Source: an uncultured Planctomycetaceae bacterium (lineage in GTDB: Bacteria; Planctomycetota; SZUA-567). From it: a stretch of DNA of 64,000 bases. Positions 29,218-56,274 of the stretch are shown in pieces (position 1 is the first letter of the stretch; the number at the start of each line of letters is the position of its first letter). The DNA lies in contig CAYWFP010000006.1 of the NCBI GenBank assembly GCA_964457365.1, positions 13,329 through 77,328 of the forward strand, read 5' to 3'. The notes beneath the pieces were generated by a model that saw only the letters and a list, made by a program, of their open reading frames with translations, ran no database searches and was not told the DNA's origin. The position numbers and the translations under genes were made by a program.

Positions 29218-29520
29218 TCAGGCCGAGGCCGGCGAGTCGATCTCTTCGACCGTGGCGGTGGTGTCGACGGTCTTCGCCGATTCGGGGTACATCGCCTCGT
29301 TCACCGCCCTGCCGGCCTTTTTGCCGATGTACCGGCCCAGTAGCGCGGAGCCGACGATGCTGATCATCCAGCCGCCGGGACCGAGGGTGTGCAGGGAGAG
29401 AACCCTCGCGTTCCAGAGCATGTGGCCCAGCGTCGCGCCACTGATGCCGCCGATCCACTTGCCGCCGATCTCGATGCGCGAAGCCTTGCTCGATCCGGTA
29501 ACCATTTTCAACAAGCCCAT
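29218..29520 (-). CDS. Hypothetical small glycine-zipper membrane protein
   Basis: 100 aa with GxxxG-rich hydrophobic segments (GGKWIGGISGATLG ... IVGSALLG). Confidence 0.4.
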   Translation of the reverse strand: MGLLKMVTGSSKASRIEIGGKWIGGISGATLGHMLWNARVLSLHTLGPGGWMISIVGSALLGRYIGKKAGRAVNEAMYPESAKTVDTTATVEEIDSPASA

Positions 29521-29684
29521 TATCCATCCTCCTTACGTGTTATTGCACTCGATCGAGGCGCCGCCGTCAACAACGAATACCGTTTGCGCGCTCCGATAAA
29601 TCGATCCCCTGTTATCGTATCGATCTGCGAGCCGGGTGAAAAGCTCCGATTCCGGATGTATCCAAAATGATGCCCGAAAGCGGG

Positions 29685-30488
29685 TTACGCCAACTGCCCG
29701 CCGTCGATCACGAACTCGCTGCCGGTGACGTAGCGGCTGGCGTCGCAAGCGAGGAAGCAGACCAGTTCGGCCACCTCGTCGCACTCCGCGAAGCGTTTCA
29801 GCGGAACCTTCTTCGCCATGTAGGCCCAGGCCGCCTCCTCGTCGCCGCCGCACTTCTCCAGCAGCTTCGGCCAGTAGGGCGCACGCGTGTAGAGATCGCT
29901 CCGCACGCCGCCCGGACAGATCGCGTTGACGCGCACGCCGTTCTCCAACTCCGCGCACTCCAGCGCCAGCGCGCGCGTCAAGAGACACGCGCCGCCTTTG
30001 CTGGCGCAGTACGCGCTCATCTCGGCCTTTGCTTTTTTGCCGAAGACCGAGGCGATATTGACAATGCTGCCGCCCTTGCGCATGGCGCGGATGCCGTGGC
30101 GCGAGCCGAGGAAGACGCCGTCGAGGTTGACCGAGAGCACGTCCCGCCAGCGCTTGTAGGTCAGCGACTTCAACGGCGTCTTCGGGGCGATGCCGGCGTT
30201 ATTCACCAGGATGCGGAGCACGCCCAGCTCGCGCTTGAGCGACTTCATCAGCTCTTTCCAGTTCGCTTCGTCCGCGACGTTGAGGACGTGAGTACGGAAC
30301 GGCCGGCCAATCATCTCCAGAGCGGCGGCGGTCTCGGCGAGGCGGTTGACGTCGATATCGGTGGCCATCACATGCGCGCCGCGACGGGCGAGCATCTCGC
30401 AGCAGGCGCGGCCGATACCGCTGGCCGCGCCGGTGACCAGGGCGACACGTTCGGCCAGGGGAGACGCGAGTTCGTCTTCTGCGCTCAT
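29685..30488 (-). CDS. SDR-family oxidoreductase (FabG-like ketoreductase)
   Basis: TGAASGIG cofactor motif, NNAG and the YCASK catalytic motif. Lies 10 nt downstream of the giant PKS gene on the same strand. Confidence 0.9.
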   Translation of the reverse strand: MSAEDELASPLAERVALVTGAASGIGRACCEMLARRGAHVMATDIDVNRLAETAAALEMIGRPFRTHVLNVADEANWKELMKSLKRELGVLRILVNNAGIAPKTPLKSLTYKRWRDVLSVNLDGVFLGSRHGIRAMRKGGSIVNIASVFGKKAKAEMSAYCASKGGACLLTRALALECAELENGVRVNAICPGGVRSDLYTRAPYWPKLLEKCGGDEEAAWAYMAKKVPLKRFAECDEVAELVCFLACDASRYVTGSEFVIDGGQLA

Positions 30489-30498
30489 CGTCGACCTT

Positions 30499-37755
<7,257 letters not shown>

Positions 37756-37850
37756 CCCCGCGCGGGCATAGGCCAGGACATGAAAGGAGGCGTCAAGCTG
37801 GATGCGGATGAGATCCCCCTTTCGTCATACCGGCGCGCAAAACGGCCGGC

Positions 37851-38603
37851 TCAATCGACAGCCTTCGCCGTTTTCCCGTTTAGCGTGAAGATCGGCGTGA
37901 CCACGTACCCGATGTTCTGGAACAGCCGGCAGCGGGTGTCGAGTCGGATTCGCGGATACAGATCCATGAAAAGCTGCTTGAGCATTCCCTGTTCGCTCTC
38001 GGGAGCCTCCGGAACCACCGGCAATTCGCACGCGCGCACGAAGACCTCCCGGGCGAAAGCCGTCTCGGCGATCCAGATGCCGCCGTTCAAGTAACGGAAC
38101 TCGCTGCCCTCATCGGCGACGCGTTCCTCGAATTCCTTGAAGCGTTTGACATTCGGCCAGTTGAGCCGGTCGGCGCCGAAGAGCATGGCGCAGTCGAAGT
38201 CCAGCTCGAAACCGTCGACGATGCGGTGCGGATCGTCGATAACGATGGCGTCGCGCGAGTCGATATAGAGCGTGTACTTCGTGGGGATCTCCTGCAAAGC
38301 CGCGTGCAGCACGCGCGGTTTGTCGCGACTGTTGACCCACGGATCGACCCCCTGGCCGTGTACCCGCACCGGTACGCCCAGATGCGCGAGGCTCTCCTCG
38401 AGAGCGCCCATGGCTTCGTGGCCGTTGTTACAGGTAATGACGGTGGTATCGCGGAGAGGGCCGACCTCTCGTTTCGGCGAGGCGTAGAACCATTGCTTGA
38501 TCGGCTGCCAGTGGACCTTGTGCGTATGCGGTCCCTGGGCGTGGATCACCACCGGGTGCGTATCGAAGAGCGTATTGGTCAGCACGCGCGGCCTCTTCGT
38601 CAC
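37851..38603 (-). CDS. Hypothetical protein (250 aa) in PKS operon; possible GT-A-like/nucleotide-sugar transferase fold (weak)
   Basis: GTG start overlapping the ACP stop (ATGTGA). Contains YIDSRDAIVIDD (DxD-like). No confident homology. Confidence 0.5.
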   Translation of the reverse strand: MTKRPRVLTNTLFDTHPVVIHAQGPHTHKVHWQPIKQWFYASPKREVGPLRDTTVITCNNGHEAMGALEESLAHLGVPVRVHGQGVDPWVNSRDKPRVLHAALQEIPTKYTLYIDSRDAIVIDDPHRIVDGFELDFDCAMLFGADRLNWPNVKRFKEFEERVADEGSEFRYLNGGIWIAETAFAREVFVRACELPVVPEAPESEQGMLKQLFMDLYPRIRLDTRCRLFQNIGYVVTPIFTLNGKTAKAVD

Positions 38604-38911
38604 ATCTTCTGCGGACCGCTCGGCTGGGCGGAATGATCGGTCGTCTCGTGGATGAAGGAGGCCAATGTATCCAAGCTCAGATCGCCGACGTACTTGCCGT
38701 CTTTCATCAGGAGCTGCTCGTACGGCAGGCGGCAGTCGAAATGCATATCCAGCGACGCCAGAAGATGCAACACATCGACGGAGGTGAAGCCCAAATCCTC
38801 GCCCAATCGAGTCTCAGGATCGAGACGTATATCGTCGAGATCCCAGTCCGACACCATCTGGCCGACGACCTCGGTCGTGCCGGCCATAACCTCGTCCTTG
38901 CTCAAGGACAT
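38600..38911 (-). CDS. Stand-alone acyl carrier protein
   Basis: 103 aa with the phosphopantetheine-site motif DLGFTSVDVLHLLASL. Confidence 0.75.
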   Translation of the reverse strand: MSLSKDEVMAGTTEVVGQMVSDWDLDDIRLDPETRLGEDLGFTSVDVLHLLASLDMHFDCRLPYEQLLMKDGKYVGDLSLDTLASFIHETTDHSAQPSGPQKM

Positions 38912-38989
38912 AACGTGATCCTTTCCGATGACAATATGCGTGGCATCAACCTTGGCGGCGATTATAGTCCGCCATCTGCGATTGACCAG

Positions 38990-41900
38990 TTAAAAGCGAA
39001 TCAGACTTCGCCCGCAGGTCCAGGCCAGAACCCGATTCGACATAACTCTAAAATCGACAACATATTCCAAGTCCGACCCGGCGGGTTTCACCCGGCAACG
39101 CGAATCGGAATCCACGGCAACGACCTCCCATGCGTCGGGCTTTCCCTGCAGGCCCAGTCCGCTCGCCTTGGCCGCGGCCTCCTTGGCGCACCAGTACTTC
39201 AACAGCGTTTCGGGCTCCCGAGCAGGAAGGCGGTCCAGTTCCGCTTGCGTAAATGACCGTTGCAGCCACGGCCCTACAGCCCGTGCGCCGGGAAGCTCGA
39301 GATCCACACCTGCCGGCCTGCCGTTTTCGCTGCACGCCGCCGCGGCCACGTCCTCCGCGTGGGTGATGGAGACCGTCGGCGGACGGGGCAGATGCGCGCA
39401 CCGGACCACCGGCATGCCGTTCTCGTCGTTGTCGATCCCCAGGTCCGCCGGCCCCAGCAGCATCCCGTGGTGCGCCCACGCCCACGCCGTCACCGCCTCC
39501 TTGGCGGCGATGCGCCCGAGGAGGTAGCTTATCCGGCGCGGGCTTCCGGCCGGGAAGGCGTAGTAGCGCTCCCGCTCGGCTTCGTCGAGGTAGACGTGCG
39601 CGAGTACGCGCTGCCAGATGCCCCAGCTCGATTCCAGGAACGTTTTGCTCAAGACATTCACCATACGGATGAGCAAGCCGGGCGCCTGCGTCTCGACCGG
39701 AACGCTTATGCGGGCCTCGAGTTGCGGGAAATTGATCCGTTCGATAAACCCCGGCGGACAGTCGAAGAGCCGTTTACGTCCCCCTTCGACCAGCATGATC
39801 GTTTGTTCGTCCGGGGTGATGAACTCGTAGCGCGTGTGGACGATGCCGTTCTCGATCCGCAGCGCGCCGCGGCAGAGTACCTGCGTCTCCGGCGCAACCC
39901 GGGCGAAGATAGTGATGCGCTCCATGGCGAAGGGGAAGACGCCGAAGCTGTGCCGCTCGCTCCGCTCGACCAGCCAGTAGGCGACCAACTGCCCCGCGCA
40001 GTCCAGGAGCAGCGGCTCAAGCGCCAGCGTCGGTGCCGGATGGTCCGGGAAATACCGGCGCGGATCGCTCTCGCGGATTACCGCCTCGTAGCCGTGGGCG
40101 TCCATCCAGTTCACCTTCCGGATACCCTGCAGCGACGGGCCGTGAAACAGGAAATAGCGGTAGAACTCGTCGACCGTGACGCGGGGAGGCCGGGCCTCGG
40201 CATCGGGCCGGATCTCCGAAGAAGGCGCGGCGGGGTATTCGTCGGCGCAGACCACCACGGCCTCCAACACCAGTGCGCGCGCTTCCTCGTCGGCGAGTTC
40301 ATACACGCGCACGCGCGCGGCGCGCTCCGCCGGCTCGGATCCGATCCGCTCGGCCTGCAGTTCGATGCCGACGGCACCACGATCAAGTGCGAGCCAGCGC
40401 ATGCCGCGCACCTCGTCCAGCCGGATCGCCATGCCGCCAAGAAGCGCTACCGCCGCCTCGGCGACCGCTTCGATGCTGAACGCCATCGGCTGCACCGGCA
40501 GGCCCGACTCTGGCGCCGTCTGCGCGACCTTCCCCGCGCGGCCGAAACAGTGATCCAGCAGGTACCGGTCCTCTCCGGCGGCCAGCCGCCGGCGCGCGAC
40601 CAGGCGCGTCGGGCTCCGCTCGACCACCTCGCCCAGGAGCGGAGCAGAAGGTTTTGTCCCCGTCGGGCTCGGCGCCGTCTCCGGCGGCCGAACGCGTGGT
40701 GACGCGGCGGGCTGTTGCAAGCGTGCGACAAGCAGGGCGTGCAGGCGCGCCTGGCTTTCGAGAAACCGGTTCATCAACTCGAAATGGGCCTTGACGATCT
40801 CCGCGCGGTCGACCGGCACCCGCTGCGGCAACGCGGGTGGCGGGGGCGCGGATGGGATCGCGGTCGTCGGAGAAGGCGCGTGTTCGTCCGCGGATGCCGG
40901 CCTCACCGGCGGCAACAACTCGTCCAGGCTTGCAGGCTCCGGCGAGCCTTCGGCCAAGAGCGCTTCGGCGTTCCACGGCACGCCGGCGACGTACAACTGC
41001 CCGAGTCCGTCCAGAAAGCTCTGCAGGCTCGGCTCCGCGCCCATGGCCAGCGCCGTGTGCGGCCGTCCGCGCAGGATGTCGCCGACGAACGGAGTGAGCA
41101 GGTTTCCCGGTCCGACTTCGAGAAAGGTGCGCACGCCGTCCTCGTGGAGCCGTTCGACGGTCTCGCGGAAGCGCACCGTGTGGACGAGCTGGTTGCGGAT
41201 CGTCTCGAGCATGGCTTCGGATTCTTCCGGCATGGGTCCCACGGCATAACAACTGAAGAGCGGAATCGTCCCGCCCCGCAGACGCAACCGCGCGAAGAAC
41301 CCGTCGTAACGCTGGAGCCGCTTCGCGAAGAGCGGCGTATGGAACGGCAGATCGAAAGGGATCGGCAGGCAGATCGCGCCCGCCTCCTGCAGACGGTCGA
41401 TGGCCCGCTCCATCGCCTCGTCATCGCCGAAGAGGACGAGTTGGTGCGGCGCGTTGTCCATGGTCAGAAAGACGCGCTCGCCATCGACCACGTCGGCGAG
41501 GCAGTCGCGGTCGCGTACACTCACGGCCACACTGCGCCCGCGCGGGACCGTCTCGCTCCGCTCCACCTCGCGGGCGAAATCCGCCAGTTCCCGCAAGAGC
41601 TGCAGGTATTCGCCGCGTTCGATACGGCTGCTTCCGCTGGCGACGAGGGCGATGTTCTCCCCGTTACTGTGACCGAGCATCGCGTCGACGGGAACGCCAA
41701 GCCGCCCGAGCAGATCGCAGAGCCCCAGCGTGCCGACGACCACCGCCGCGCCGCCGGCGTTGATGTCCAGAAGAAAACGCTTCACCGCTTCGCCTTGTTC
41801 TCCCGTCAATACGGCCGGCGGATGGAGCAGCGTACTGACCGCGTTCTCCTGCGGATGCGCGAAGGTCGCGTCGAGCTGGTCGAACGCGGACCTTATCGAC

Positions 41901-43339: not shown

Positions 43340-43348
43340 TCTCGGCCT

Positions 43349-44020: not shown

Positions 44021-45435
44021 GACGTTCCTTTCCCGCTTCGGTGCAGCGCGGAGAGAGAACGCGCGGCCGCCTCGACGCTCTCGGTCGCCGGAACTCCCCG
44101 CCCGCGCAGATAGGCCAGGCCCGCGCGAACCGTCGACTCCGCGCCCCAGACGAGGTGAACCTGCGGCTGCGGATAGGTCGCGTGCAGCGCGACGAGTCCG
44201 GCGAGTTGTTTTTCCAGGTAGCCGTCCCAATACCAGTTGCACGTGACCAGGGCGTCGACGCCGGGATTCTCCAGCACCGCGCGCATGCACGCGTCGACGC
44301 GCGCCGGATCGGCCATCACCGCGGGGGTGATGTCGAGCGGGTTGGCGTGGCTGGCGAAGGGCGGGATCAGCGCGCGGATGTTCTCGCGCGCCGCGTCTTC
44401 AAGCGGCGGAAGTGTCAGACCGTGCACGACGAGCCGGTCGACCAGGTTCACTCCGACGCCGCCGAGAGTGGTGACGACGCCGACACCACTGCCGCGCAGC
44501 GGTCGCCCCGTGGCCATGACGGCGAGGGCCTCGACCAACTCGGATACGGTCTCGACGAGGATGACGCCGCGTTCAAGCAGCAGTTCCCGCAGCGCCGCCG
44601 CCTCGGCCGCATCGGCGCCGGTATGACGTCTGCACGCCTTCACGCCCGTGTCGCTGCGCCCGCCTTTGAGGAGGACGATCGGCTTGCCGACTTTCCACAG
44701 CGCGCTCAGTCCCGCGTCAAGCGCATTCGGGTCGGATGTGTTCTCCAGGTATGCACCCACGCGTGGCGTCTGCGGATCCTCCGCGTAATACGCCAGAAGT
44801 TCGCCGAAAGTCAGGTCGGCCTCGTTGCCGCTGCTGACCATGCGGCTATAGCCGACGCCGCGCGCGCCCAGTCCCTCGAAGACGCGGGCGCAGATGCCGC
44901 CGCTCTGGCCGACGAAGCTGAAGCTCTGCGGATAACTGAGGTGCGATTCGTCCAGCGGCTGCAGCAGGAGGAAGTTCGCCATCAATTTCGACGGCGTCGA
45001 GAGCACGCCCATGCAGTTGGGACCACAGAGAAGCAGACCGAACTCGCGTGCCGTTTGGCGCAGATTCTCTTCCAGCGCTTCGCCCGCCTCGCCCGCCTCG
45101 CCGTACCCGCTGGTCAGGACGATTACGGCTTTGACACCGGCCTGTGCGCAGTCCGCGAGGGTATTCGGCACCAGCGGCGGCGGCAGGGCGATGATCGCGA
45201 GTTCCGGCGATTCGGGAAGATCCGCGAGCGACTTGTAGCAGCGGCGGTTCAGGATCTCGTCGTACTTGGGATTGACCGGGTAGATCCCGCCCGGAAAGCC
45301 CGCGCGTTTCAACGCCAGCACCGGCTGGCCGCTGGGCTTGAAGGGATCCGCGGAGGCGCCGACGACCGCCACGGCATTGGGCGCGAAGAGCGCCCGGAGA
45401 GCCGTCCGGCGATGAGCGGAGAGGACGGCGCTCAT
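44017..45435 (-). CDS. Acyl-CoA synthetase (NDP-forming) alpha-subunit-like protein (CoA-binding plus succinyl-CoA-synthetase-like domains), no beta/ATP-grasp partner
   Basis: AVVGASADPFKPSG CoA-binding Rossmann start and the ACD-alpha architecture (about 473 aa). ATGA overlaps on both sides. Confidence 0.7.
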   Translation of the reverse strand: MSAVLSAHRRTALRALFAPNAVAVVGASADPFKPSGQPVLALKRAGFPGGIYPVNPKYDEILNRRCYKSLADLPESPELAIIALPPPLVPNTLADCAQAGVKAVIVLTSGYGEAGEAGEALEENLRQTAREFGLLLCGPNCMGVLSTPSKLMANFLLLQPLDESHLSYPQSFSFVGQSGGICARVFEGLGARGVGYSRMVSSGNEADLTFGELLAYYAEDPQTPRVGAYLENTSDPNALDAGLSALWKVGKPIVLLKGGRSDTGVKACRRHTGADAAEAAALRELLLERGVILVETVSELVEALAVMATGRPLRGSGVGVVTTLGGVGVNLVDRLVVHGLTLPPLEDAARENIRALIPPFASHANPLDITPAVMADPARVDACMRAVLENPGVDALVTCNWYWDGYLEKQLAGLVALHATYPQPQVHLVWGAESTVRAGLAYLRGRGVPATESVEAAARSLSALHRSGKGTS

Positions 45436-46046
45436 GAGGTGGCGAGCAGTCGTCGGCCGGCTTCGAAGGCGCCCCGGTTCAACTCGCGCAGCTTGGGCTT
45501 GAGGACCAGGGGCAATGCTTCCAGATAACGCCCGGCCGGCAGATCCAGCGCGCCGCACGCGGCCAACGCGCCGAGCATGACCACGTTGGTCGCCTTGGCG
45601 TTGCCGGTCTCCTGCGCGGCCTTGACCGCCGGCAGCAGCTTCGTCGCGGGAGCGAGTGTCGAGAGCGCTTCGGCGATAGCGTCCACCGCAGGATAGGTCG
45701 CCTTGCCGCTGAGGACGGCGATGGGGTAGATCGGCCGGTCGCTGGCGAGAACCGTGGTCTCCGGATTGCCGTAGTCGGCCAGCACGCGCAACGTCTCCAG
45801 GGGTTCGAGCCCGACGATGACGTTGGCCTTGCCGCGCGGGATGAGCGGCCCCGTGCGCAGCGTCGGATGCAGGCGGACGTGGCTCATCACCGCGCCGCCG
45901 CGTTGACTGGCGCCGAAGGTCTCGCCGACGCTGACCTGGTAACCCGCCGCCACGGCCGCGGTCGCCAGCAGGCGCGAGGCGAGGACGTTGCCCTGGCCGC
46001 CGACGCCGGTGATGATGACGTTGAGGGGATCCGTAAGCGCGATCAT
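45432..46046 (-). CDS. iorB: Indolepyruvate:ferredoxin oxidoreductase beta subunit
   Basis: IITGVGGQGNVLASRLL motif, 204 aa; its ATG overlaps the iorA stop (ATGA). Confidence 0.8.
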   Translation of the reverse strand: MIALTDPLNVIITGVGGQGNVLASRLLATAAVAAGYQVSVGETFGASQRGGAVMSHVRLHPTLRTGPLIPRGKANVIVGLEPLETLRVLADYGNPETTVLASDRPIYPIAVLSGKATYPAVDAIAEALSTLAPATKLLPAVKAAQETGNAKATNVVMLGALAACGALDLPAGRYLEALPLVLKPKLRELNRGAFEAGRRLLATS

Positions 46047-47965
46047 GCGCCGCCCTCCGGCACGAGCTCGGCTGCGGCGATGGCGCCGGCCGGGCAGAGT
46101 TGCGCGCAGACGCCGCAGCCGTTGCATAGCGTCTCGTCGATCCGCGCCTTGTTCGTCGCGTCGTCCCAGACGGTACCGGGGCAGGCGAATTTTCGCGAGC
46201 AGAGCCCGCAGCCGGCGCAGCGTTCGGGATCGACGCGCAGAACGGTCTTGGTTTTCTCGCGCGCGGCTTGCAACGCGCACGGTTGCCGCAGGATCAGGAC
46301 GCGCGGTCCGGTCTGCTGCAACAGGTCGTAGACGGCCGTCTCGGTCGCCTGCAGGTCGAACGGATCGCGCACGGTGACCGGCAGTCCGATGCCTTCAAGG
46401 AGCGACTCCATCCCCACCCGCGCGGCGTCGACACCGCTGGCGCTGGTCGGCAATCCCGGGTGCGGCTGGTGTCCGGTCATGGCGGTGGTGTGGTTATCCA
46501 GAACGACCAGCAGGACGTCGGCGTTGAGGTGTTTGGCCTCGACGAAGGCCGGGAGGCCCGCGTGGTAGAACGTGCTGTCGCCCAGCACCGCCACCACCGG
46601 ACGCTTGAAATCGAACCGCCCGAGCCGTCCGAGTCCCGTGGCCATGCCGACGCCCGCGCCCATGCAATGTACCGAGCGCAGCACGCCGTAGCCTGTCTTA
46701 CCGAGCGCGAGGGTATAACAGCCGATGTCGCCCAAAACGATAGCGCCGCGCCCGTCTCGATCGACCGCACGGTACATGGCCCAGAAGCCGGCCCGGTGAC
46801 CGCAGCCGGCGCAGAAGGTATGTTCGCGCTTGGGCATCTCCTGATCGAGCAGCTTCTCCGCCGCGGCGGTATCGGTGAATCGTCTCGTCGCGCGCTCGCC
46901 GCCGAAGACGCTCTGGATCGCGTTTATCACCAGATCCGGATCCATCTCGCCCACGCCCGGGCCGTGCGGGCCCGCGACCGTGCCGTCCATTTTGCCGCGG
47001 AAGCGGGTCATGCCGATTTCGCTCATATGCAGCGCCGTCCATGCCATGACGCTCTCTTCGACGAATCCGGCGGTCTCTTCGACAAAGACCACCTCCGCCG
47101 CCGGCGCGAGCGCCTTCGCGAGCAATTCGTCCGGCAGGGGGAAGCTTGTCCCGAGCCGCAGCAGGCCGACCTCGCCGCTGAGGCCCAGCAGGCGGATCGC
47201 CTCGGCCGCGTGCAGGGCACAGACGCCGGTGGCGATGACCAGCTTCTTCACCCCTTCGGGGCCGGCGTAAACGTTGAACGGCGACTGCTCGTGCAGTCCC
47301 TTGACCGCCGCGAGCCGTTTCTTTACAGCGGCGTGAAACATGCCCAGCGTCAGAAAGCGCTCCTCCGGGCCGATATCGGCCTTCCGCTCGCGCGGCGGCA
47401 ACTCGCCCAGGGTGACGTTCCCGGAGCCATGGCAGATGCGCGTGGTGAGGCGCACCGCCACCGGCAGGCCGATTTTTTCGGAAACGTCGAAAGCCGCGCG
47501 CGTCATCTCCTTGGCGTCGTGCACGGTGGCGGCTTCCCAGACGGGGATTTCGGCGGCCTTGAGAAACGCGCGGCAGTCCTCCTCCTTGACGCCCGAATGC
47601 GCGCCGCAGTCGTCGCCGACGACGATGACCATGCCGGCCTTGACGCCGGTGTAGGCCAGGGCGGTCAGAAAGTCGAGCGTGACGTTGAGGCCGTCGGGCT
47701 TCATCGAGACGAGCGCGCGCAAACCCGCCAGACTCGCGCCGGCAGCCGCCTCCATCGCCACGATCTCGTTGATCGACCATTCCGCGACGATGCCCGCCTC
47801 TTCCGCAACCGCGGCGAGCGAGCCCATGATTTCCACCGTCGGCGAGCCCGGATACGACGCGGCCATCTGCGCGGCGCCTTCGAGCACGCCGCGCGCCGCC
47901 GCCTCGTTGCCGTTGAGGAGAAGCGCGCCCCCGGGGTCGTCGCGCAGGATCAAGTGGTCGCTCAT
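46043..47965 (-). CDS. iorA: Indolepyruvate:ferredoxin oxidoreductase alpha subunit (TPP-binding, two 4Fe-4S ferredoxin motifs)
   Basis: Start MSDHLILRDD at 47965 (ATGA overlap with upstream gene). TPP motif GDIGCYTLA...GDSTFYHAG. Ferredoxin motifs CAGCGLCSRKFACP and CNGCGVCAQLCP. Confidence 0.85.
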   Translation of the reverse strand: MSDHLILRDDPGGALLLNGNEAAARGVLEGAAQMAASYPGSPTVEIMGSLAAVAEEAGIVAEWSINEIVAMEAAAGASLAGLRALVSMKPDGLNVTLDFLTALAYTGVKAGMVIVVGDDCGAHSGVKEEDCRAFLKAAEIPVWEAATVHDAKEMTRAAFDVSEKIGLPVAVRLTTRICHGSGNVTLGELPPRERKADIGPEERFLTLGMFHAAVKKRLAAVKGLHEQSPFNVYAGPEGVKKLVIATGVCALHAAEAIRLLGLSGEVGLLRLGTSFPLPDELLAKALAPAAEVVFVEETAGFVEESVMAWTALHMSEIGMTRFRGKMDGTVAGPHGPGVGEMDPDLVINAIQSVFGGERATRRFTDTAAAEKLLDQEMPKREHTFCAGCGHRAGFWAMYRAVDRDGRGAIVLGDIGCYTLALGKTGYGVLRSVHCMGAGVGMATGLGRLGRFDFKRPVVAVLGDSTFYHAGLPAFVEAKHLNADVLLVVLDNHTTAMTGHQPHPGLPTSASGVDAARVGMESLLEGIGLPVTVRDPFDLQATETAVYDLLQQTGPRVLILRQPCALQAAREKTKTVLRVDPERCAGCGLCSRKFACPGTVWDDATNKARIDETLCNGCGVCAQLCPAGAIAAAELVPEGGA

Positions 47966-49152
47966 GCGTTCACCTCGTCGATGTTTTTCAGGAGCGCGCG
48001 CAGGTTCTCTTCCGTGTCCTGCCATCCGCGGCTCTCGCTCATCCTCTTGACCTTGGCCATCAGGGCCTCGGCCTGTTCGTTCGTGAGTTCCGCACCCAGC
48101 TCCTTCGCGCGCGCGAAAAACGCGGCCCGACCGCTGTGCTTGCCCAGGACCAGGCGCACGCTTCCCGCGCCGACGAGCTCGGGCGCGTACGGCAGGTACG
48201 TGGTCGGATTTTTCAGCAAGCCGTCCTGGTGGATGCCGGCCTCGGTGGCGAAGATGTTGGCGCCGGCGACGGGCTTGGTCGGCGAGAGCGGCACGCCGGC
48301 CTCTTCGCTGACCAGGCGCACGAGCGGGACGAGCTCGTTCAGTTTTATCGGCACGCTCCGGCCGAGGCGTTCGCGCTGCAGATGCGCCGCCAGCGCCACT
48401 TCTTCCAAGGCGGCGTTGCCGGCGCGCTCGCCGAGACCGCCGACGGTGCATTGCACGATCGCCGCGCCCGCGCGCACGCCCGCGAGGCTGTTGGCCACCG
48501 CCATCCCCAGGTCGTTATGGAAATGCACGGCCAGGTACGCCTTGGCCAGTTCCGGAAGTTCCGTCCACAAGGTCTTGAGATTCTCGATCACCTGGTCCGG
48601 CGCGAGAACGCCGACGGTGTCGGTATAGCCGATGGTGGTCGCGCCGGCCTGCAAGGCCGCGCGACAGACCTCGACCAGATACGGCATCTCGGTCCGGCTG
48701 GCATCCTCCGCGCCGAAGGCGACCACGCCGAAGCGCTCCCGGGCGTAGCCGACGCTGGCGCGGACGCGGTCGATCAGTTCGCTCTCGCTCAAGCGTAGCT
48801 TCTGCTCGCGGTGCACGGTGCTCGTGGCGATGAAGAGGCTGACGCCGCAGCGGCGACGGTCGATGCCCTCGAAGGCGGTGCAGGCCGCGTCGATGTCGCG
48901 CTCCACGGCGCGGCAGAGCGCGGTGACCATCGTCTTCGGCAGCGCCTGTGCGACCGCCCGCACGGATTCCACCTCGCCCGGACCGCTGGCGGGAAAGCCC
49001 GCCTCGATGGAGAAGATGCCGGCCTCGGCCAGTGCCACGGCGATGCGCACCTTCTGCTCGGCGGTCAACGCCACGCCCGGCATCTGCTCGCCGTCGCGGA
49101 GCGTCGTGTCGCTGAAGACGATAGGCGGTGCATCGGTCTGCTGCTGTGTCAT
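47962..49152 (-). CDS. LeuA/NifV/CimA-family 2-oxoacid:acetyl-CoA condensing enzyme (DRE-TIM metallolyase, short form without regulatory domain)
   Basis: FSDTTLRDGEQ N-terminal motif and the HFHNDLG metal-binding motif; 396 aa. First gene of the minus-strand operon. Confidence 0.8.
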   Translation of the reverse strand: MTQQQTDAPPIVFSDTTLRDGEQMPGVALTAEQKVRIAVALAEAGIFSIEAGFPASGPGEVESVRAVAQALPKTMVTALCRAVERDIDAACTAFEGIDRRRCGVSLFIATSTVHREQKLRLSESELIDRVRASVGYARERFGVVAFGAEDASRTEMPYLVEVCRAALQAGATTIGYTDTVGVLAPDQVIENLKTLWTELPELAKAYLAVHFHNDLGMAVANSLAGVRAGAAIVQCTVGGLGERAGNAALEEVALAAHLQRERLGRSVPIKLNELVPLVRLVSEEAGVPLSPTKPVAGANIFATEAGIHQDGLLKNPTTYLPYAPELVGAGSVRLVLGKHSGRAAFFARAKELGAELTNEQAEALMAKVKRMSESRGWQDTEENLRALLKNIDEVNA

Positions 49153-49267
49153 CGAAGCCCTTTCCGTGCAGACCATATCCGATTTTCACCACGCCCTCAA
49201 CCGTCTTTTCGGTCAAATCCGATGAAAGGGGACGGCTGCGGCGTTTTCGCTCTCTTGACAGAACTTC

Positions 49268-50995
49268 ATGCTCTTTCTAGACTTCCCACGGATTGCGGGC
49301 TCGATTGGCGGGCAGGTCACTTACTGGGTAATCCCGGAGATTTTTTTCATGCCTCCTCTGGCCCGCTCGGCTTATCTGGAATTGCTGCGCGAGGAGATCG
49401 GCGACCGGCTCTGGCCGTTGATGCTGCTCTCGGCCTTCTCGGGAATCGCCAGCGGCGTGATCGTGACATTGATTACCTCGATCACCGAGACCGATATCCA
49501 CGGTTGGGCCATGCTCCGCTTCCTGCTGCTCTTCGTCATGGTCGCGCTGGCGTCGCTGGAGTTGTCGCGCCAGGCGTTGCTGCGGGTGAACCGGGAGATC
49601 GAGCGCCTCGTCCACCGCATCCGCACGCGCGTGGCCGACCGTATCCGCCACGCGGAACTCCGAGACCTGGAGCGGCTGGACCTGGCGCGCATCTACGTCA
49701 CCACCGCCGAGAGCACCGAGAACCTGACCAAGGCGTCAATGCCGGTCTTCAAGAGCATCGGCGCGCTGGTGCTCATCGCCTACTGCCTGGTGCAGATCGG
49801 CTTGACAAGCACGGTGGCGCTGGCGCTGGTCCTGGGCAGCTTTCTCGGCGCGAGCCTCCTGTACCTGTATATCGAGAAATACGCCTACGAATACATCCGC
49901 GAAGCGTACGTGGCGGAGTACCGGTTCTTCAAACTCATGCGTGAACTCGCTCGCGGCTTCAAGGAACTCCGGCTCAACCGCGCCCGCGACGCGGACATTC
50001 ATGCGGACCTCGAATCGCAGGCCGACCGGGTCGAGGCGCGGAAAATGCGCGCGCACCGTCTCGTCGCCTGGCTCTACAGCTACACCGATCTCTTCTTCTT
50101 CCTCACACTGGGGCTGCTGATCTTTCTGTTGCCGTTGCTGCACGCCTGGACCTCGCGGCAGTTGGCCGACCTGATCGCCATCCTGCTTTTTCTCGGCGGC
50201 GGCGTGGCGCAGGTGGTGCTCAGCGTCCACCAGATCGCCCAGGCCAACGTGGCGGTGCAGCAACTGCGGGAGATGGAGACCGGGCTGCGTCAATGCGTCG
50301 TGCCGGACACCCCTCAGGGAGCGCGCCCGCTACGGGAGCTGACGTTGAAGAAGGCGGTCTTCTCCCATCGCGACGAAGAAGGCGGAGAACTATACACCGT
50401 CGGTCCGGTCTCCTTGACCATCCGCCCGGGAGAAGTGTATTTTCTCGTCGGCGGTAACGGCAGCGGCAAATCCACGTTGCTGAAGATCATCGCCGGCCTG
50501 TACGCGCCGGAGGACGGCGAGATTCTCCTCAACGGCGAGGCGGTCGTCCGCGAAAACCGGCAGGACTATCGTGAACTCGTCAGCGCCGTCTTTACCGACT
50601 TCCATCTCTTCGACCGTCTGCTGGGATGGGAGGAAACGTCGCCGGAACGGGTGAACGCGCTGCTGGAGGAGTTGGGGCTGGCGAGCAAGGTCTCGTTCGA
50701 GAACGGCGGCTTCAGCACGCTGCAGCTCAGTACCGGACAGCGCAAGCGGCTGGCGCTGGCGGTGGCGCTCCTGGAGGACCGGCCGCTCCTGCTGCTCGAC
50801 GAGGTCGCCGCGGACCAGGATCCGTACTGGCGCGAGGAGTTCTATACGCGGATCGTGCCCAAACTGAAAGCACGGGGCAAGGCCGTGGTCGTGATCGGGC
50901 ATCACGATCGGTATTTCGAGACCGGCGACATGTTGTGGCGCATGGATTACGGGGAACTGGTCGAACAGCGCCCCGCGCGCTCCACGGAGGCATGA
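49268..50995 (+). CDS. ABC half-transporter, cyclic-peptide/siderophore exporter (SyrD/YojI) family, TMD-NBD fusion
   Basis: N-terminal 6-TM domain. NBD with Walker A GGNGSGKST, the signature variant LSTGQRKRLA, and Walker B LLLLDE. An alternative start lies at 49349. Confidence 0.85.
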   Translation: MLFLDFPRIAGSIGGQVTYWVIPEIFFMPPLARSAYLELLREEIGDRLWPLMLLSAFSGIASGVIVTLITSITETDIHGWAMLRFLLLFVMVALASLELSRQALLRVNREIERLVHRIRTRVADRIRHAELRDLERLDLARIYVTTAESTENLTKASMPVFKSIGALVLIAYCLVQIGLTSTVALALVLGSFLGASLLYLYIEKYAYEYIREAYVAEYRFFKLMRELARGFKELRLNRARDADIHADLESQADRVEARKMRAHRLVAWLYSYTDLFFFLTLGLLIFLLPLLHAWTSRQLADLIAILLFLGGGVAQVVLSVHQIAQANVAVQQLREMETGLRQCVVPDTPQGARPLRELTLKKAVFSHRDEEGGELYTVGPVSLTIRPGEVYFLVGGNGSGKSTLLKIIAGLYAPEDGEILLNGEAVVRENRQDYRELVSAVFTDFHLFDRLLGWEETSPERVNALLEELGLASKVSFENGGFSTLQLSTGQRKRLALAVALLEDRPLLLLDEVAADQDPYWREEFYTRIVPKLKARGKAVVVIGHHDRYFETGDMLWRMDYGELVEQRPARSTEA

Positions 50996-52119
50996 TGAAC
51001 CGTCCGCGCGTCCTGCTCTATTGCCACAACGCCGTCGGCCTCGGCCACGTGATGCGGACGCTGCGGATCGCGCGCGCGCTGATCGGGCACGACTGCGCGG
51101 TGAAGCTGCTGACCGGGTGCCGCTGGCTCGACGGAGTCGAGACTCCTGCCGGCGTCGAGATCGACCAACTCCCAGCGGTACGCTTTGACGGCGTCCGCTT
51201 CGTCGCCGCCGAAGGCGATGGGGACGTCTTCGCGCGGCGCGGCGAGCGCATCCTGCAGGTGCTGCACGCGTGGCGGCCGCAGGTCGTTCTGGCGGATCAT
51301 CTGGCGCTCGGACTCGGCGGCGAATTGATCCCCGCGCTCCGGGACGAATCGATCCCCGCCACGTTCGTCTGGGGCGTGCGGGACATCTTCTACCATCCCG
51401 ATCGCCCGTCGCTGGCGCCGCGGCCGCCGCGCAACCCGACGATGCGCGCCGCGCTGGCCCGTTACGGCGCGAGCGTGGCCTACACCACCGCCGACTGGAT
51501 CGATCCCTTCGCCGCGATGAGCCATTATCCGCTTTCCACACGCCGGCATCACGTCGGCGTGATCGTCGGCGACGAGCCGGCGGTGAAGCCGGAGACGCCG
51601 CCGCGCATCGTCTGCCTCGCCGGCAGCGGCGGCAGCAGCGAGACGCATACGCGCCTCTGGTTCGAGGCGCTGGCAGGCATGAGCCGCGGCGTTTTTCGCA
51701 CGCGCATGGTCGTCGGCCCGTTCGGCGATCTGGAGAATACCCGCGCACGCGGCGAGGAGCTCGACGTGGAAGTGGTTCCGCAGATGCCGGCCGAAGCGGC
51801 GGTGGCCGACGCGCATGTCGTGCTCTCGCAGGCGGGGTACAACACCGCCTACGCCCTGACGCGCACGCCCTGTCCGCTGGTGTTCCTGCCGGCGGCCAAC
51901 GACGGGGCCGAACAGACGTACCGCGCCGAACGGATGCGCACGCTCGACCGGGTCTGGACGGTGGACCCGGAGAGCCCGGATGCGGTCGCGGACTTGCGTC
52001 AAGCGTTGACCGAGGCGCTGAACGCCGCTGTGGCGCCGCGGACGTTGCCGTTCGTTACCGACGGCGCGACAAATGCGGCAGCGCTGTTGACGGCGTGGGC
52101 GCGGGAGGCGACGGCATGA
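50992..52119 (+). CDS. GT-B fold glycosyltransferase (GT1/GT28-like)
   Basis: Start MMNRPRV overlaps the upstream stop (ATGA). The N-terminal RVLLYCHNAVGLGHVMRTLRIARAL is typical of the MGT/MurG-like GT-B N-domain; 375 aa. Confidence 0.7.
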   Translation: MMNRPRVLLYCHNAVGLGHVMRTLRIARALIGHDCAVKLLTGCRWLDGVETPAGVEIDQLPAVRFDGVRFVAAEGDGDVFARRGERILQVLHAWRPQVVLADHLALGLGGELIPALRDESIPATFVWGVRDIFYHPDRPSLAPRPPRNPTMRAALARYGASVAYTTADWIDPFAAMSHYPLSTRRHHVGVIVGDEPAVKPETPPRIVCLAGSGGSSETHTRLWFEALAGMSRGVFRTRMVVGPFGDLENTRARGEELDVEVVPQMPAEAAVADAHVVLSQAGYNTAYALTRTPCPLVFLPAANDGAEQTYRAERMRTLDRVWTVDPESPDAVADLRQALTEALNAAVAPRTLPFVTDGATNAAALLTAWAREATA

Positions 52120-52895
52120 AACAACTGCTGATCAACGCCGACGATCTGGGATTGAGCGCCGGAGCCTCACGCGGCATCGCGCATGCAATGACCGAGGGCG
52201 TGGTCGTCTCCTGCTCGGCCATGGTTGCCGTCCCCGGCGCGGTCGAGACCATCGCCCGTTACGCATCGTGTCTTCGCGGCCGGATCGGACTGCATCTGCA
52301 ACTGACCGCCGGCACGCCGTGCCTGCCGCCGGAAGAGGTGCCGACACTTGTCAAGGAAAACAGCGTTTTTCCACCGCACTGGCGCGAGTTGGGTCGCCCG
52401 GATCCGGACGAGATCCGCCGCGAGTGGCGCGCGCAACTGACGCGGCTGCGGGCGGCGGGCGTGGAACCGACGCACCTGGACTGTCATCACAACCTGCACC
52501 TCGATCCGCGCATCCTTCCGCTGGCGATCGAGTTGGGGCAGGAGTTGGGCGTGCGTGTGCGCAGCGGCGGGCGGGCGTTGGCGGCTTCTCTGCGCAAGGC
52601 CGGCATCGTCTGCACCGATCACTGCATCGTCGGTTGGGGGAAACGGGCGATCAGCCGCACCGATCTGGTCGAGACGGTCGATGCGGTATTCTCCACACGG
52701 CAAGCGCCGCGAACGGTCGAACTGGTCTGCCATCCAGGCGAGCTCGACGACGACCTGCGCGCACGCGCCGGCCAGGTCGAGACGCGGCCGGCGGAACTGG
52801 CGGTGTTGACCGATCCGGCAACGTCTTCGGCACTCGAGGCCGCGGGCATCGAGCTCTTGACCGCGCCGCCGACGCTCTCGGGGGAGCGATCCTGA
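52116..52895 (+). CDS. YdjC/ChbG/HpnK-family carbohydrate deacetylase
   Basis: MKQLLINADDLGLSAGASRGI start plus the THLDCHHNLH motif. ATGA overlap with the glycosyltransferase gene. Confidence 0.8.
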   Translation: MKQLLINADDLGLSAGASRGIAHAMTEGVVVSCSAMVAVPGAVETIARYASCLRGRIGLHLQLTAGTPCLPPEEVPTLVKENSVFPPHWRELGRPDPDEIRREWRAQLTRLRAAGVEPTHLDCHHNLHLDPRILPLAIELGQELGVRVRSGGRALAASLRKAGIVCTDHCIVGWGKRAISRTDLVETVDAVFSTRQAPRTVELVCHPGELDDDLRARAGQVETRPAELAVLTDPATSSALEAAGIELLTAPPTLSGERS

Positions 52896-54562
52896 TGCAT
52901 ACGCCCGAGCGCCATCCATTTCTCAAGATGCTGTACACCGAGGTCGGCCCCCATACGCTCTGGGTGATGGTCGCCTCGCTGTTCTGCGGCCTCGCCAACA
53001 GCGCGGTGGTGATCTGCATCAACAACGCCGCCAAGTCGCTGGGCCAACCACTGCGGCTGGTGATCCTCTTCGGCTCGTTTCTGCTGGCCATGCTCGTCTT
53101 CGTCATCGGACGCAATTTCGTCCTGCGCCGCAGCACCGCGTACGTGGAGCTGATGATCCGGCGCATGCGCATGCGCATGGCCGAGGAACTGCGTGTGGCC
53201 GATCCGCTGACACTCGAACAGTTGTCCGCGGGCGAGGTTTTCTCCGTGCTGACCAAGTGCACGCAACTGGTCTCGCGCTCGACGATCCCGCTCTTCCTGG
53301 CCATGACCTCGGCGGTGATGCTCGTCGGTTGTCTCGTCTACATGTGCTTTCTCTCGCTCGCGGCGGCGATCGCGACGGTGGCGGTCTTCCTCGTCTGCGC
53401 GCGTTACAACCAACTCACCCAGGTCGAGGTGGACGCGCTGCTGGAGAAGAGCATCCGCAGCGAGAACGCTTTCTTCGGCAAGCTGCAGGATCTCTTGGAC
53501 GGCATCAAGGAAGTCAAGCTCAGTCGCGCGCGGAGCAACGCCCTCTACCGCGAGGTACTGCTGCCGCTGGCCGAGGAGGCCCGGACGCATCAATACGAAG
53601 CGCGCATCCCGGTCATCGAGAACCACGTCTTCGGTCATGCATTCTTCTATATCATCGTCGCGGCGGTGCTCTTTCTGCTGCCGGCGCTGCCCGGGGGAAC
53701 GCCGCGGCTGATGGCGGAGCTGATCGCGTTGCTGCTCTTCATGCGCTCCTCGCTGGAGGAGGTTGTCGGCGCCATTCCGATTCTGGGCGAGGCGGACGTG
53801 GCCATGCGCAATCTCTTCGCGTTGCGGGACCGGCTGGCGAAGCCCGAGCCCGAGCCGAACCCGGTGCAGATCCGTCGCCTGGAGCGCATCGAGCACGTCG
53901 AGTCGGTCGCGGTGCGCGGCCTCTCCTTCCGCTACCCCAGCCCAGACGGCCGGTCGACCTTCGGCATCGGGCCGCTGGACCTGGAGGTGCGCGCCGGCGA
54001 GATCACCCTCGTTCACGGCGCCAACGGGGCGGGCAAGTCCACGCTCCTGAAGGTGCTGACCGGGCTGTACGAACCCGACGACGGCGAGATCTATCTCAAC
54101 GGCCAGCCGGTCAATCCCGGCAACCGCCGCCGGTATCGCGAGTTCTTCAGCGCCGTCTTCAGCGACTTCCACGTCTTCCGCCGGCTCTACGGTCTGGCCG
54201 ACGCCGCCGACGCCCGGGTGCTGGATCTGCTGGAGGATCTGGAACTGGCCGCACGCACCGACGTGGTCGACCGGGCCTTCACCAACGTGGACCTGAGCAC
54301 GGGGCAGCGCAAGCGACTGGCGTTCCTGGTGGCGCTGCTGGAGGAGCGGCCTGTCTGCGTCTTCGACGAGGTGGCGGCGGACCAGGATCCGGAGTTCCGC
54401 GCGCGCTTCTACCGTGAGATCCTGCCGCGGCTCAAGGCGGAAGGGAAAGCGATCCTGCTGGTCAGCCACGACAAGGACTTCTTCGACGTCGCCGACCGCA
54501 TGTACGCGATGGACTACGGCACGCTGCAATGCGAGCGTGATCGGGAGCGAAGGGGTTTTTGA
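52895..54562 (+). CDS. ABC half-transporter, SyrD/YojI-type (second copy), TMD-NBD fusion
   Basis: Start MHTPERHPF overlaps the upstream stop (TGATG). Walker A GANGAGKST, LSTGQRKRLA, Walker B VCVFDE. Paralog of 49268..50995. Confidence 0.85.
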   Translation: MHTPERHPFLKMLYTEVGPHTLWVMVASLFCGLANSAVVICINNAAKSLGQPLRLVILFGSFLLAMLVFVIGRNFVLRRSTAYVELMIRRMRMRMAEELRVADPLTLEQLSAGEVFSVLTKCTQLVSRSTIPLFLAMTSAVMLVGCLVYMCFLSLAAAIATVAVFLVCARYNQLTQVEVDALLEKSIRSENAFFGKLQDLLDGIKEVKLSRARSNALYREVLLPLAEEARTHQYEARIPVIENHVFGHAFFYIIVAAVLFLLPALPGGTPRLMAELIALLLFMRSSLEEVVGAIPILGEADVAMRNLFALRDRLAKPEPEPNPVQIRRLERIEHVESVAVRGLSFRYPSPDGRSTFGIGPLDLEVRAGEITLVHGANGAGKSTLLKVLTGLYEPDDGEIYLNGQPVNPGNRRRYREFFSAVFSDFHVFRRLYGLADAADARVLDLLEDLELAARTDVVDRAFTNVDLSTGQRKRLAFLVALLEERPVCVFDEVAADQDPEFRARFYREILPRLKAEGKAILLVSHDKDFFDVADRMYAMDYGTLQCERDRERRGF

Positions 54563-56246: not shown

Positions 56247-56274
56247 TTGACAGCGCAAGGCGTCTACCTACAAT
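56247..56274 (+). promoter_or_regulatory. Sigma70-like promoter TTGACA-16-TACAAT
   Basis: Consensus -35 and near-consensus -10 sit 58 nt upstream of the ATG at 56332. Confidence 0.4.

Follow-up and report, generated by a model that had tools for sequence, protein, structure and literature searches.

A divergent gene cluster encoding a two-subunit synthase related to polyunsaturated fatty acid synthases, putatively for an exported glycolipid, in an uncultured Planctomycetaceae bacterium

Secondary lipid synthases resemble polyunsaturated fatty acid (PUFA) synthases, and the list of their known products is short, comprising PUFAs, heterocyst glycolipids, the phenolic lipids of Azotobacter and hybrids of the zeamine type (PMC13291983). 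In the PUFA synthases themselves (pfaEABCD), PfaB consists of a pseudo-ketosynthase and an acyltransferase (AT), has a Tyr beside the catalytic Ser, lacks the malonyl Gln-Arg pair, and serves as a terminal long-chain acyltransferase (PMC12895367, 2026). The current work concerns a cluster of 14 genes at positions 29685-54562 of a 64,000-nucleotide stretch of DNA from an uncultured Planctomycetaceae bacterium (assembly GCA_964457365.1, contig CAYWFP010000006.1); this whole stretch is called the window. On balance, and with moderate confidence, the locus can be read as a gene cluster that directs the synthesis of a glycolipid destined for export or for the envelope, the lipid of which would be made by an iterative two-subunit synthase related to the PUFA synthases.

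The cluster region has about 68% G+C, and raw lists of open reading frames (ORFs) are therefore crowded with spurious frames. The gene map was based on third-position GC (GC3) and a frame plot, with one coding frame per segment, and candidate starts were inspected beside the upstream stops; an independent gene call on a Logan contig carrying identical proteins matches it. Ten genes lie on the minus strand (29685-49176), transcribed in the order LeuA-like, IorA, IorB, ADP-forming acyl-CoA synthetase alpha subunit (ACD-alpha), methyltransferase, the polyketide synthase (PKS) subunit PKS-B, acyl carrier protein (ACP), GT_PLOD-like glycosyltransferase, the subunit PKS-A and a short-chain dehydrogenase/reductase (SDR). 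The divergent plus-strand operon (49268-54562) contains four: the ABC half-transporter ABC1, a putative GT-B glycosyltransferase, a YdjC deacetylase and the second half-transporter, ABC2. The GC3 frames and the inspected starts bear out the divergent cluster that the original prediction, made from the sequence alone, had placed at about 29.7-54.6 kb. Its count of 17 genes and 16 junctions is replaced by 14 genes and 12 same-strand junctions. The compactness that it had emphasized (15 of 16 junctions at 10 nt or less) persists in the corrected map at 10 of 12. At eight of these junctions the genes overlap, by 4 nt in seven cases and by 1 nt in the eighth, and the other four are gaps of 9 nt, 10 nt, 78 nt (before the ACP gene) and 41-95 nt (before PKS-A). 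From the LeuA-like gene to the methyltransferase gene the overlaps are successive and each is 4 nt, and the gap from there to PKS-B is 9 nt; these features suggest that all of these genes belong to one transcript. Given the translational coupling of its genes and the reappearance of the same set in genomes that are not related, the cluster is beyond chance.

The first synthase subunit, PKS-A (30499 to at least 37755, minus strand), is a megasynthase recognized by Pfam, NCBIfam and motif matches. By residue, it comprises a pseudo-enoyl reductase (pseudo-ER, about 1-300), an enoyl reductase (ER, 311-645), a ketosynthase (KS, 676-1065), a malonyl-AT (1229-1523), two ACPs (Ser at about 1746 and about 1853), and a ketoreductase (KR, 2138-2354). 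The KS contains DAACASS at 859, HGTGT at 997 and GHTK at 1036, and its Cys-His-His triad is present. The AT has GHSYGE at 1326 and AFHS, and keeps the arginine of the 'EMRG' motif when read by sequence against FabD. Both ACPs carry the PUFA-type motif LGxDSIKRVE, and the KR motif is YAAAN at 2321. The ER, with ECGGH at 450, matches the NMO domain at an E value of 6e-12; among the NCBIfam models it matches FabK alone, with 68.6 bits where the cutoff is 453. A PDB search with PKS-A returned generic modular PKS matches only, which do not discriminate between PfaA, HglE and PKSE.

The real ER is preceded by another barrel of the FabK/NMO type, complete and about 300 aa long (window 36826-37755). 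The N-terminal piece still matches the FabK model, and it contains ECGGW at 120 in place of ECGGH; the His is also replaced in the five homologues inspected, in which GGP, GGF, GGV and GGW were found. By its motifs, the N-terminal barrel of PKS-A is a pseudo-ER, and the pseudo-ER and ER form a conserved tandem. In thraustochytrid PUFA synthase, the ER domains are reported to form a heterodimer (PMC13311796, 2026). The pseudo-ER appeared truncated when viewed from the NCBI-called protein (P0054); this was rejected, as the portion that seemed to be lacking is encoded in the same frame, ahead of the called starts. The database starts of PKS-A are TTG 37533 (NCBI) and TTG 37755 (Logan). The frame upstream of both (37756-37827, SFHVLAYARAG...) aligns with the N-termini of homologues; no ATG, GTG or TTG occurs in it, and an ATC at 37809 stands 5 nt after a Shine-Dalgarno-like AAAGGGGGA. 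This homology and this site imply that the annotated starts are probably too short, and that the true start lies upstream, near 37809, either non-canonical or mis-annotated.

The second subunit, PKS-B (38990-43339, minus strand), was delimited by Pfam, motifs and alignment with orthologues from Streptomyces and Nevskia. Its order by residue is a decayed KS (KS', about 1-450), an AT (459-755), a PKS-type dehydratase (DH, 900-1167), and an Sfp-type phosphopantetheinyl transferase (PPTase, 1266-1414). KS' is a sub-threshold remnant: alignment with the intact KS-AT-DH-PPTase of Streptomyces shows that the active-site Cys and the first His have been lost. One relative retains less of this remnant, and another has none of it. 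The AT contains GHSNGE at 556 and FHTP at 666 and keeps the glutamine of GQG. At the malonyl-carboxylate-binding position of FabD (Arg117), it has a Leu in all four PDB alignments with FabD-type malonyl transacylases. The DH is of the PS-DH type (DHCFG at 929, LLDCAGQ at 1111), and the PPTase, which contains GVDLE at 1344 and WCAKEAAAK at 1383, matches the ACPS domain at 42.8-49.3 bits. PKS-B aligns end to end with the Streptomyces counterpart, and with the corresponding subunit of Nevskia ramosa it shares 31% identity over 1339 aa. A word-index search had suggested that PKS-B is near-unique (nearest match 34% identity, 29% coverage); the full-length Nevskia ramosa orthologue and the related loci described below led to the rejection of this idea. 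The KS-AT and DH regions are weakly similar to those of proteins of about 1,900 aa with the order KS-AT-ACP-KR-DH.

Two small proteins accompany the synthase. The free-standing ACP (38600-38911, minus strand, 103 aa) gives a PP-binding match of 23.4 bits, has the serine motif LGFTSVD, and is conserved beside PKS-B in related loci. The FabG-like SDR (29685-30488, minus strand, 267 aa; adh_short_C2, 194 bits) is the last gene of the minus-strand operon, 10 nt from PKS-A; it reaches no NCBIfam equivalog cutoff and is not conserved in related clusters. Nearly all domain calls of the original prediction were thus confirmed by Pfam and NCBIfam models, including the division of the iterative synthase into ER-KS-AT-ACP2-KR and KS0-AT-DH-PPTase proteins with a free ACP and an SDR.

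Much of this content resembles that of PUFA synthases. PKS-A has the PfaA set of KS, malonyl-AT, serial ACPs and KR together with the PUFA-type ACP motif, a TIM-barrel FMN-type ER takes the place of PfaD and an Sfp-type PPTase that of PfaE, and the pseudo-KS and AT of PKS-B reproduce the layout of PfaB. The differences are as follows. PfaC, which consists of a KS with a chain-length factor (CLF) and two FabA-type DH domains, is missing: no FabA (PF07977) domain, second KS or CLF was found in the scanned ORFs of the cluster and window, and the only DH is of the PS-DH type. The ER is fused to the PfaA-like subunit with the extra pseudo-ER ahead of it and matches FabK rather than PfaD; there are only two ACPs; and the DH and PPTase are fused to the PfaB-like subunit, the AT of which has GHS (GHSNG) where PfaB has GYS. 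Moreover, the synthase is linked to glycosyltransferases and not to phospholipid synthesis. In content, it is pfaD::pfaA plus pfaB::DH::pfaE without pfaC. The types A to T of Shulse and Allen include none with a fused ER-PfaA and a PfaB-DH-PPTase; the nearest, type J, has a separate ER followed by KS-MAT-ACP3-KR.

The resemblance to the other two systems that had been named as parents of a PUFA-synthase/hgl/PKSE hybrid is loose. With the hgl island of cyanobacteria, the locus would share a PUFA-synthase-like iterative synthase, a long reduced chain, glycosylation and envelope export (in part PMC13291983). It differs in lacking an HglB-type thioester-reductase release enzyme (no NAD_binding_4 or thioester-reductase domain was matched by Pfam in any cluster ORF) and a DevBCA/HgdD-type exporter, and in having a 2-oxoacid module as well as two glycosyltransferases and a de-N-acetylase, which imply an amino-sugar head group. 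In addition, no labelled relative of the cluster among metagenome-assembled genomes (MAGs) is cyanobacterial. With the enediyne PKSE (KS-AT-ACP-KR-DH-PPTase), it shares a PKS-type DH followed by an integrated Sfp-type PPTase; unlike PKSE, it is split over two proteins and has an ER, and the KS of its DH-PPTase subunit is dead. No SgcE10-type or hot-dog thioesterase and no enediyne cassette gene was detected by Pfam among the scanned window ORFs. Defining features of all three systems are lacking: PfaC in comparison with PUFA synthases, the thioester reductase and Dev-type exporter in comparison with hgl islands, and the single chain and cassette in comparison with PKSE, from which the locus also differs by its ER. 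Among the secondary lipid synthases it is best regarded as a variant with a new architecture.

A similar architecture is found in Nevskiales and Streptomyces, in which two-subunit synthases of the form ER-KS-AT-ACP-KR(-DH) plus KS-AT-DH-PPTase are encoded. The subunits are orthologous (PKS-A is 40-46% identical) and a small ACP gene comes next likewise; unlike the window synthase, theirs retain a second KS that is intact, and subunit A often carries a DH. The accessory genes also differ, being a phosphodiesterase and hexapeptide acyltransferases in Nevskia and a hydrolase and GT1 in Streptomyces. The Nevskia ramosa locus (L017) and three others (L002-L004) combine the orthologous synthase with a gene of the type I phosphodiesterase/alkaline-phosphatase family; L017 adds the hexapeptide acyltransferases, and L002 adds a hydrolase, a methyltransferase and SDRs. 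These loci look like they specify different uncharacterized lipid products, and no reported product was found for the Nevskiales and Streptomyces synthases. Nor was a characterized counterpart or product of the window cluster found in the full-text literature, in a coverage that excluded most subscription papers; an identical characterized cluster, which had been named as a ground for abandoning the proposal, was likewise not found in the literature covered.

The gene set of the window can be traced in other genomes through its putative GT-B fold glycosyltransferase (50992-52119, plus strand, 375 aa), which belongs to a small unannotated family and was taken as a paralogue-free marker of this cluster type. 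The marker was found at 5 loci among one genome each of 185,579 species and at 10 loci in a metagenome scan, and an exhaustive HMMER search of 1.84 billion proteins gave 59 representatives at E<=1e-30. All window proteins were compared by tblastn with the fetched loci, and precomputed gene tables were used alongside. A six-gene core, consisting of PKS-A, PKS-B, ACP, GT-B, YdjC and the GT_PLOD-like GT-A glycosyltransferase, is present in at least eight further loci: L006/L009 (Thermodesulfobacteriota MAG), L008 (Thermoanaerobaculia MAG), L011 (Acidobacteriota MAG), L022, L025, L026, L029 and L030. They span MAGs labelled Thermodesulfobacteriota, Thermoanaerobaculia or Acidobacteriota as well as metagenome contigs, and in L030 the core is one collinear operon. 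Related core loci usually add GT1, GT4 or GT28 glycosyltransferases and CE4 deacetylases, and L006 also carries a Wzx-type flippase and an RND/OMF pump. A Thermodesulfobacteriota MAG has every part of the window cluster, including LeuA-like, IorAB, ACD-alpha, methyltransferase and TMEM175-like genes, at 41-59% identity. On its own, the two-subunit synthase has a much wider distribution that includes Nevskiales and Streptomyces among others, and there it is accompanied by different accessory genes.

The assignment of the GT-B protein depends on its family profile, which matches GtfA, YjiC and MurG at E values of 5e-4 to 1e-2; six of seven family members match Glyco_tran_28_C, the best at 1e-7. 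The YdjC-family carbohydrate de-N-acetylase (52116-52895, plus strand, 259 aa) is clear at the family level (PF04794, 182.9 bits against a cutoff of 29.7) and reaches neither equivalog model, scoring 150.8 bits with ChbG (cutoff 227) and 106.2 bits with HpnK (cutoff 232.6), the latter being one of three NCBIfam models that it matches. It adjoins GT-B in L006, L008, L011, L021-L023, L025, L026, L029 and L030. The second glycosyltransferase (37851-38603, minus strand, 244-250 aa) is an LH3-like GT-A enzyme (PF25342 GT_PLOD, 43 bits) with a DSRD (DxxD) motif, and its best PDB matches are the glycosyltransferase domains of the lysyl hydroxylase LH3. Its counterparts are 46-54% identical in L006, L008, L011, L022, L025 and L026 and are annotated as GT_PLOD in L029 and L030. 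The original prediction had missed this gene, together with the conserved TMEM175-like neighbour, and had proposed tailoring by GT-B and YdjC, which is confirmed; the glycolipid reading is strengthened by the linkage in at least eight other loci. A YdjC-family deacetylase encoded directly after a glycosyltransferase in one operon also follows the logic of HpnI/HpnK, which make hopanoid glucosamine, and of NodC/NodB. The window differs from the HpnI/HpnK pair in that its glycosyltransferase is GT-B and not GT2, and in that the predicted acceptor is a polyketide or fatty chain and not a hopanoid.

Export was ascribed to two SyrD-type ABC half-transporters, and this also stands. ABC1 (49268-50995, plus strand, 575 aa, or 548 aa if the start is 49349; ABC_tran) scores 329.0 bits and ABC2 (52895-54562, plus strand, 555 aa; ABC_membrane and ABC_tran) scores 340.1 bits with TIGR01194, the model for SyrD-type cyclic peptide export, both exceeding its cutoff of 286.2. 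The DevA and HepA models are far below their cutoffs for both exporters.

The remaining five genes, all on the minus strand, form a possible 2-oxoacid module. The first gene of the operon (47962-49152/49176, 396-404 aa) encodes a LeuA-type 2-alkylmalate synthase with HMGL-like (262 bits) and HCS_D2 domains and the RDGEQ and HFHND motifs. Of the NCBIfam models LeuA fits it best (404.7 bits; cutoff 697), no LeuA, NifV or CimA cutoff is reached, and its best PDB matches are the isopropylmalate synthase (IPMS) 3rmj and then the Brassica IPMS-family enzyme 6e1j. A C-terminal LeuA_dimer regulatory domain was not found by Pfam, and the enzyme thus shares with 2-alkylmalate synthases of the 6e1j type a catalytic HMGL-like barrel plus subdomain and no leucine-binding regulatory domain. 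It differs from IPMS-family enzymes in lacking a partner isomerase or dehydrogenase in the cluster and in being coupled to a ferredoxin-dependent 2-oxoacid oxidoreductase and a PKS. The oxidoreductase subunits are IorA-like (46043-47965, 640 aa; POR_N, TPP_enzyme_C and Fer4, implying TPP and 4Fe-4S) and IorB-like (45432-46046, 204 aa; POR domain), with best NCBIfam matches to TIGR03336 (540.7 bits, cutoff 650.9) and TIGR03334 (154.6 bits, cutoff 205.8), respectively. ACD-alpha (44017-45435, 472 aa) has CoA_binding_2, Succ_CoA_lig and Ligase_CoA_2 domains and scores 333 bits with TIGR02717 against a cutoff of 567. The class I SAM-dependent methyltransferase (43349-44020, 223 aa; Methyltransf_11, 74.8 bits) reaches no equivalog cutoff.

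In the Thermodesulfobacteriota MAG that has every part of the cluster, the LeuA-like protein is 52% identical to its counterpart in L006, and IorA, IorB and ACD-alpha are 58%, 57% and 42% identical to those in L014, where ACD-alpha is placed after IorAB. The methyltransferase is 51% identical to an orthologue that adjoins PKS-B in L009. The closest homologue of ACD-alpha (52% identity) follows IorB at another locus (L016, 2585-6520), an 8-kb contig on which no PKS is visible; it is succeeded by a 1311-aa fusion of AP_endonuc_2 (a xylose-isomerase-like TIM barrel) with a PPDK_N/phosphohistidine domain. As the module recurs only once among the related loci, it is an accessory part of the cluster.

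From these genes a pathway can be proposed. The PPTase domain of PKS-B would activate the two ACPs of PKS-A and the free ACP. The one active KS would then elongate the chain with the malonyl-specific AT and the two ACPs, and reduction would be shared between the KR and ER of PKS-A and the DH of PKS-B. Because there is one active KS with a full KR/DH/ER set, and neither a FabA-type isomerizing dehydratase nor a chain-length factor, fatty acid synthase (FAS) and PKS logic leads to the expectation of a long, saturated or partly hydroxylated chain, not a cis-polyene. The same outcome had been deduced earlier from the lack of a PfaC-like KS-CLF-DH2 module, an absence now confirmed. The KS'-AT of PKS-B, with the layout of PfaB and no malonyl arginine, most likely loads a non-malonyl starter or hands on the finished chain; such a role would fit a cluster in which no thioesterase or reductase is encoded. 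GT-B and the LH3-like GT-A would attach sugars including an N-acetyl-hexosamine, and YdjC would de-N-acetylate this to a free amino sugar. This amino-sugar glycolipid reading is suggested by the linkage of the core, across loci, to at least two glycosyltransferases and to carbohydrate de-N-acetylases. A heterodimer of the two ABC half-transporters would export the product, and the presence of these exporters suggests that it is secreted or resides in the envelope.

The LeuA-like, IorAB, ACD-alpha and methyltransferase proteins would probably yield an unusual starter in the form of an acyl-CoA, derived from a 2-oxoacid that has been lengthened and perhaps methylated. Starter supply is favoured because the module is coupled to PKS-B, is co-inherited with the core in two phyla and stands beside an AT that is not of the malonyl type. 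It is a guess, and the weakest link of the argument, because the module is missing from most related clusters and an NRPS takes its place in one. The gene identities given by the original prediction hold, and the starter role assigned to them is an inference for a module found beside the core in one of at least eight related loci. We know of no precedent in which PKS starters are provided by a module for 2-oxoacid homologation and ferredoxin-dependent decarboxylation.

Several observations weigh against the glycolipid proposal or parts of it. The best NCBIfam match of PKS-A, TIGR02813 (PfaA), scores 924 bits, below its cutoff of 1010, and no PfaD-family model of NCBIfam matched the ER. The GT-B protein alone gives weak Glyco_tran_28_C and MurG matches with no Pfam domain above threshold, and its single-sequence AlphaFold2 model was unusable (pLDDT 37, pTM 0.34). 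No ATP-grasp beta subunit for ACD-alpha is encoded in the cluster, and LeuCD and LeuB, which true 2-oxoacid elongation needs, are not in it either. The 2-oxoacid module recurs once and is absent from about eight of nine related core clusters, as far as the contigs reach. In L030 (1433-5635; GCA_001263485.1), a single non-ribosomal peptide synthetase (NRPS) module, C-A-PCP-TE, lies upstream of the core where the 2-oxoacid module would be; this variant may join the lipid to an amino acid. Finally, no release enzyme (thioesterase, reductase or condensation domain) is encoded in the window cluster, and the link between lipid and sugar is not fixed by the genes; the earlier statement that all functions of the pathway are present was overstated in this respect.

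An alternative that we regard as unlikely has the same parts as the favoured proposal and another linkage. In this alternative, the product is an N-acylated amino sugar or oligosaccharide, assembled by Nod-factor or lipid A logic: the glycosyltransferases build a GlcNAc-containing head, YdjC exposes the amine, the AT of PKS-B, acting as a terminal acyltransferase like PfaB, transfers the ACP-bound chain to it, and the methyltransferase modifies the head group. Direct acyl transfer from an ACP is attractive because no thioesterase or reductase is encoded. The deacetylase belongs to the conserved core, many relatives add a NodB-type CE4 deacetylase, the dedicated free ACP is conserved, and the AT lacks the malonyl arginine. 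The NodB, NodA, NodF, NodE, NodS and NodIJ proteins offer a precedent for such N-acyl logic. Nevertheless, no N-acyltransferase of the NodA, LpxD or LpxA type is found in the cluster, and we know of no FabD-fold AT that acylates sugars. In the hopanoid pathway, the amine stays free after the action of HpnK-type YdjC enzymes, and an LH3-like GT-A would suit O-glycosylation of a secondary alcohol.

It is somewhat less likely still that the five genes from LeuA-like to methyltransferase do not feed the synthase at all. They might instead yield a separate small acid, an alkylmalate serving as acceptor or aglycone like the malate of bacillithiol, or be ordinary genes of 2-oxoacid and amino-acid catabolism that stand in the operon by chance. 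The rarity of the module among the core clusters is in keeping with this, as are the flippase and RND genes that stand between IorAB-ACD and the LeuA-like gene in L006/L014, the IorB-ACD-alpha pair without a visible PKS on the short contig of L016, and the lack of LeuCD or LeuB for elongation; IOR and ACD are, moreover, a known catabolic pair. Opposed to it are the unbroken series of overlaps that ends 9 nt from PKS-B, the recurrence of all five genes beside the same core in a different phylum at 42-59% identity, and the absence of the leucine-feedback domain from the LeuA-like enzyme, as in copies of specialized metabolism.

A conjugated polyene or polyunsaturated fatty acid, made by an enediyne-type PKSE relative or a true PUFA synthase, is very improbable, for although the C-terminal DH-PPTase fusion of PKS-B resembles PKSE, proteins of about 1,900 aa with KS-AT-ACP-KR-DH order are among the PKS-B matches, and the ACP motif and top NCBIfam match are PfaA-like, the synthase is split over two proteins with an intact ER fused to its KS subunit, the PfaA score is below cutoff, and no FabA-like DH, CLF, hot-dog thioesterase or enediyne cassette gene occurs among the scanned window ORFs.

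The surroundings of the cluster are those of an ordinary chromosome, with genes for PNPase, MnmG, TrpD, Der and a low-molecular-weight (LMW) phosphatase in the flanks; no tRNA or Rfam match was found in the window. The two operons diverge from a 91-nt intergenic (promoter) region (49177-49267). A promoter-like TTGACA-17-TAGACT on the plus strand at 49255-49283 is a consensus match only, and another promoter-like site lies at 38988-38961, upstream of the free ACP gene; in these promoter and terminator scans, the counts were near the shuffled expectation, and the sites serve as hints only.

Just outside the span first proposed, and convergent to the cluster, lies a gene for a TMEM175/DUF1211-like membrane protein of 230 aa, a putative K+ channel homologue (28255-28947, plus strand; PF06736, 85.8 bits). 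In the related clusters L006 and L010, of two Thermodesulfobacteriota MAGs, its orthologues (41-46% identity) are flanked by the PKS-B and ACP genes, the counterpart in the MAG that holds every part of the cluster being 41% identical; the gene may be a cluster member. Downstream of the SDR, a glycine-rich hypothetical ORF of 100 aa (29218-29520, minus strand) has no Pfam match and is called as a gene on the Logan contig; a plus-strand alternative ORF (29204-29599) overlaps it. At the other end, the genes for an SPFH/Band-7 protein of 462 aa and, overlapping it, a membrane peptide of 69 aa lie at 54630-56224 (plus strand), 67 nt after ABC2, with no terminator-like site between ABC2 and the SPFH/Band-7 gene. 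A DUF697 gene follows (56332-56970, plus strand); it has a separate promoter-like site at 56247-56274, and a hairpin at 57002-57027 strongly resembles a terminator. None of these three genes is conserved in the related clusters compared. Elsewhere in the window, a single 606-aa ORF (20347-22167, minus strand) is an unusual fusion of DUF116 with a polyprenyl synthetase, and another ORF (17483-18541, plus strand) joins a pentapeptide-repeat protein to the potassium-channel pore domain Ion_trans_2.

Annotation pipelines cut the 5' end of PKS-A short and leave the marker glycosyltransferase unnamed. A broader proposition, which is tentative and more doubtful than the reading of the window locus itself, is that such clusters represent an unrecognized class of envelope or secreted amino-sugar glycolipids in uncultured Acidobacteriota, Thermodesulfobacteriota and Proteobacteria. 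Their lipid might be supplied by a dedicated two-subunit machine rather than the housekeeping FAS, with release by a PfaB-like acyltransferase in place of a thioesterase, and in the present case it might be primed by a 2-oxoacid. The recurring six-gene core is a small and concrete target for expression, of about 20 kb, or about 25 kb with the accessory module. If a product is found, it would test the PfaB-like KS'-AT as a release or loading enzyme outside PUFA synthesis and the LeuA/IOR pair as a supplier of PKS starters, and it would constitute a new class of lipids for uncultured bacteria of soil and sediment.

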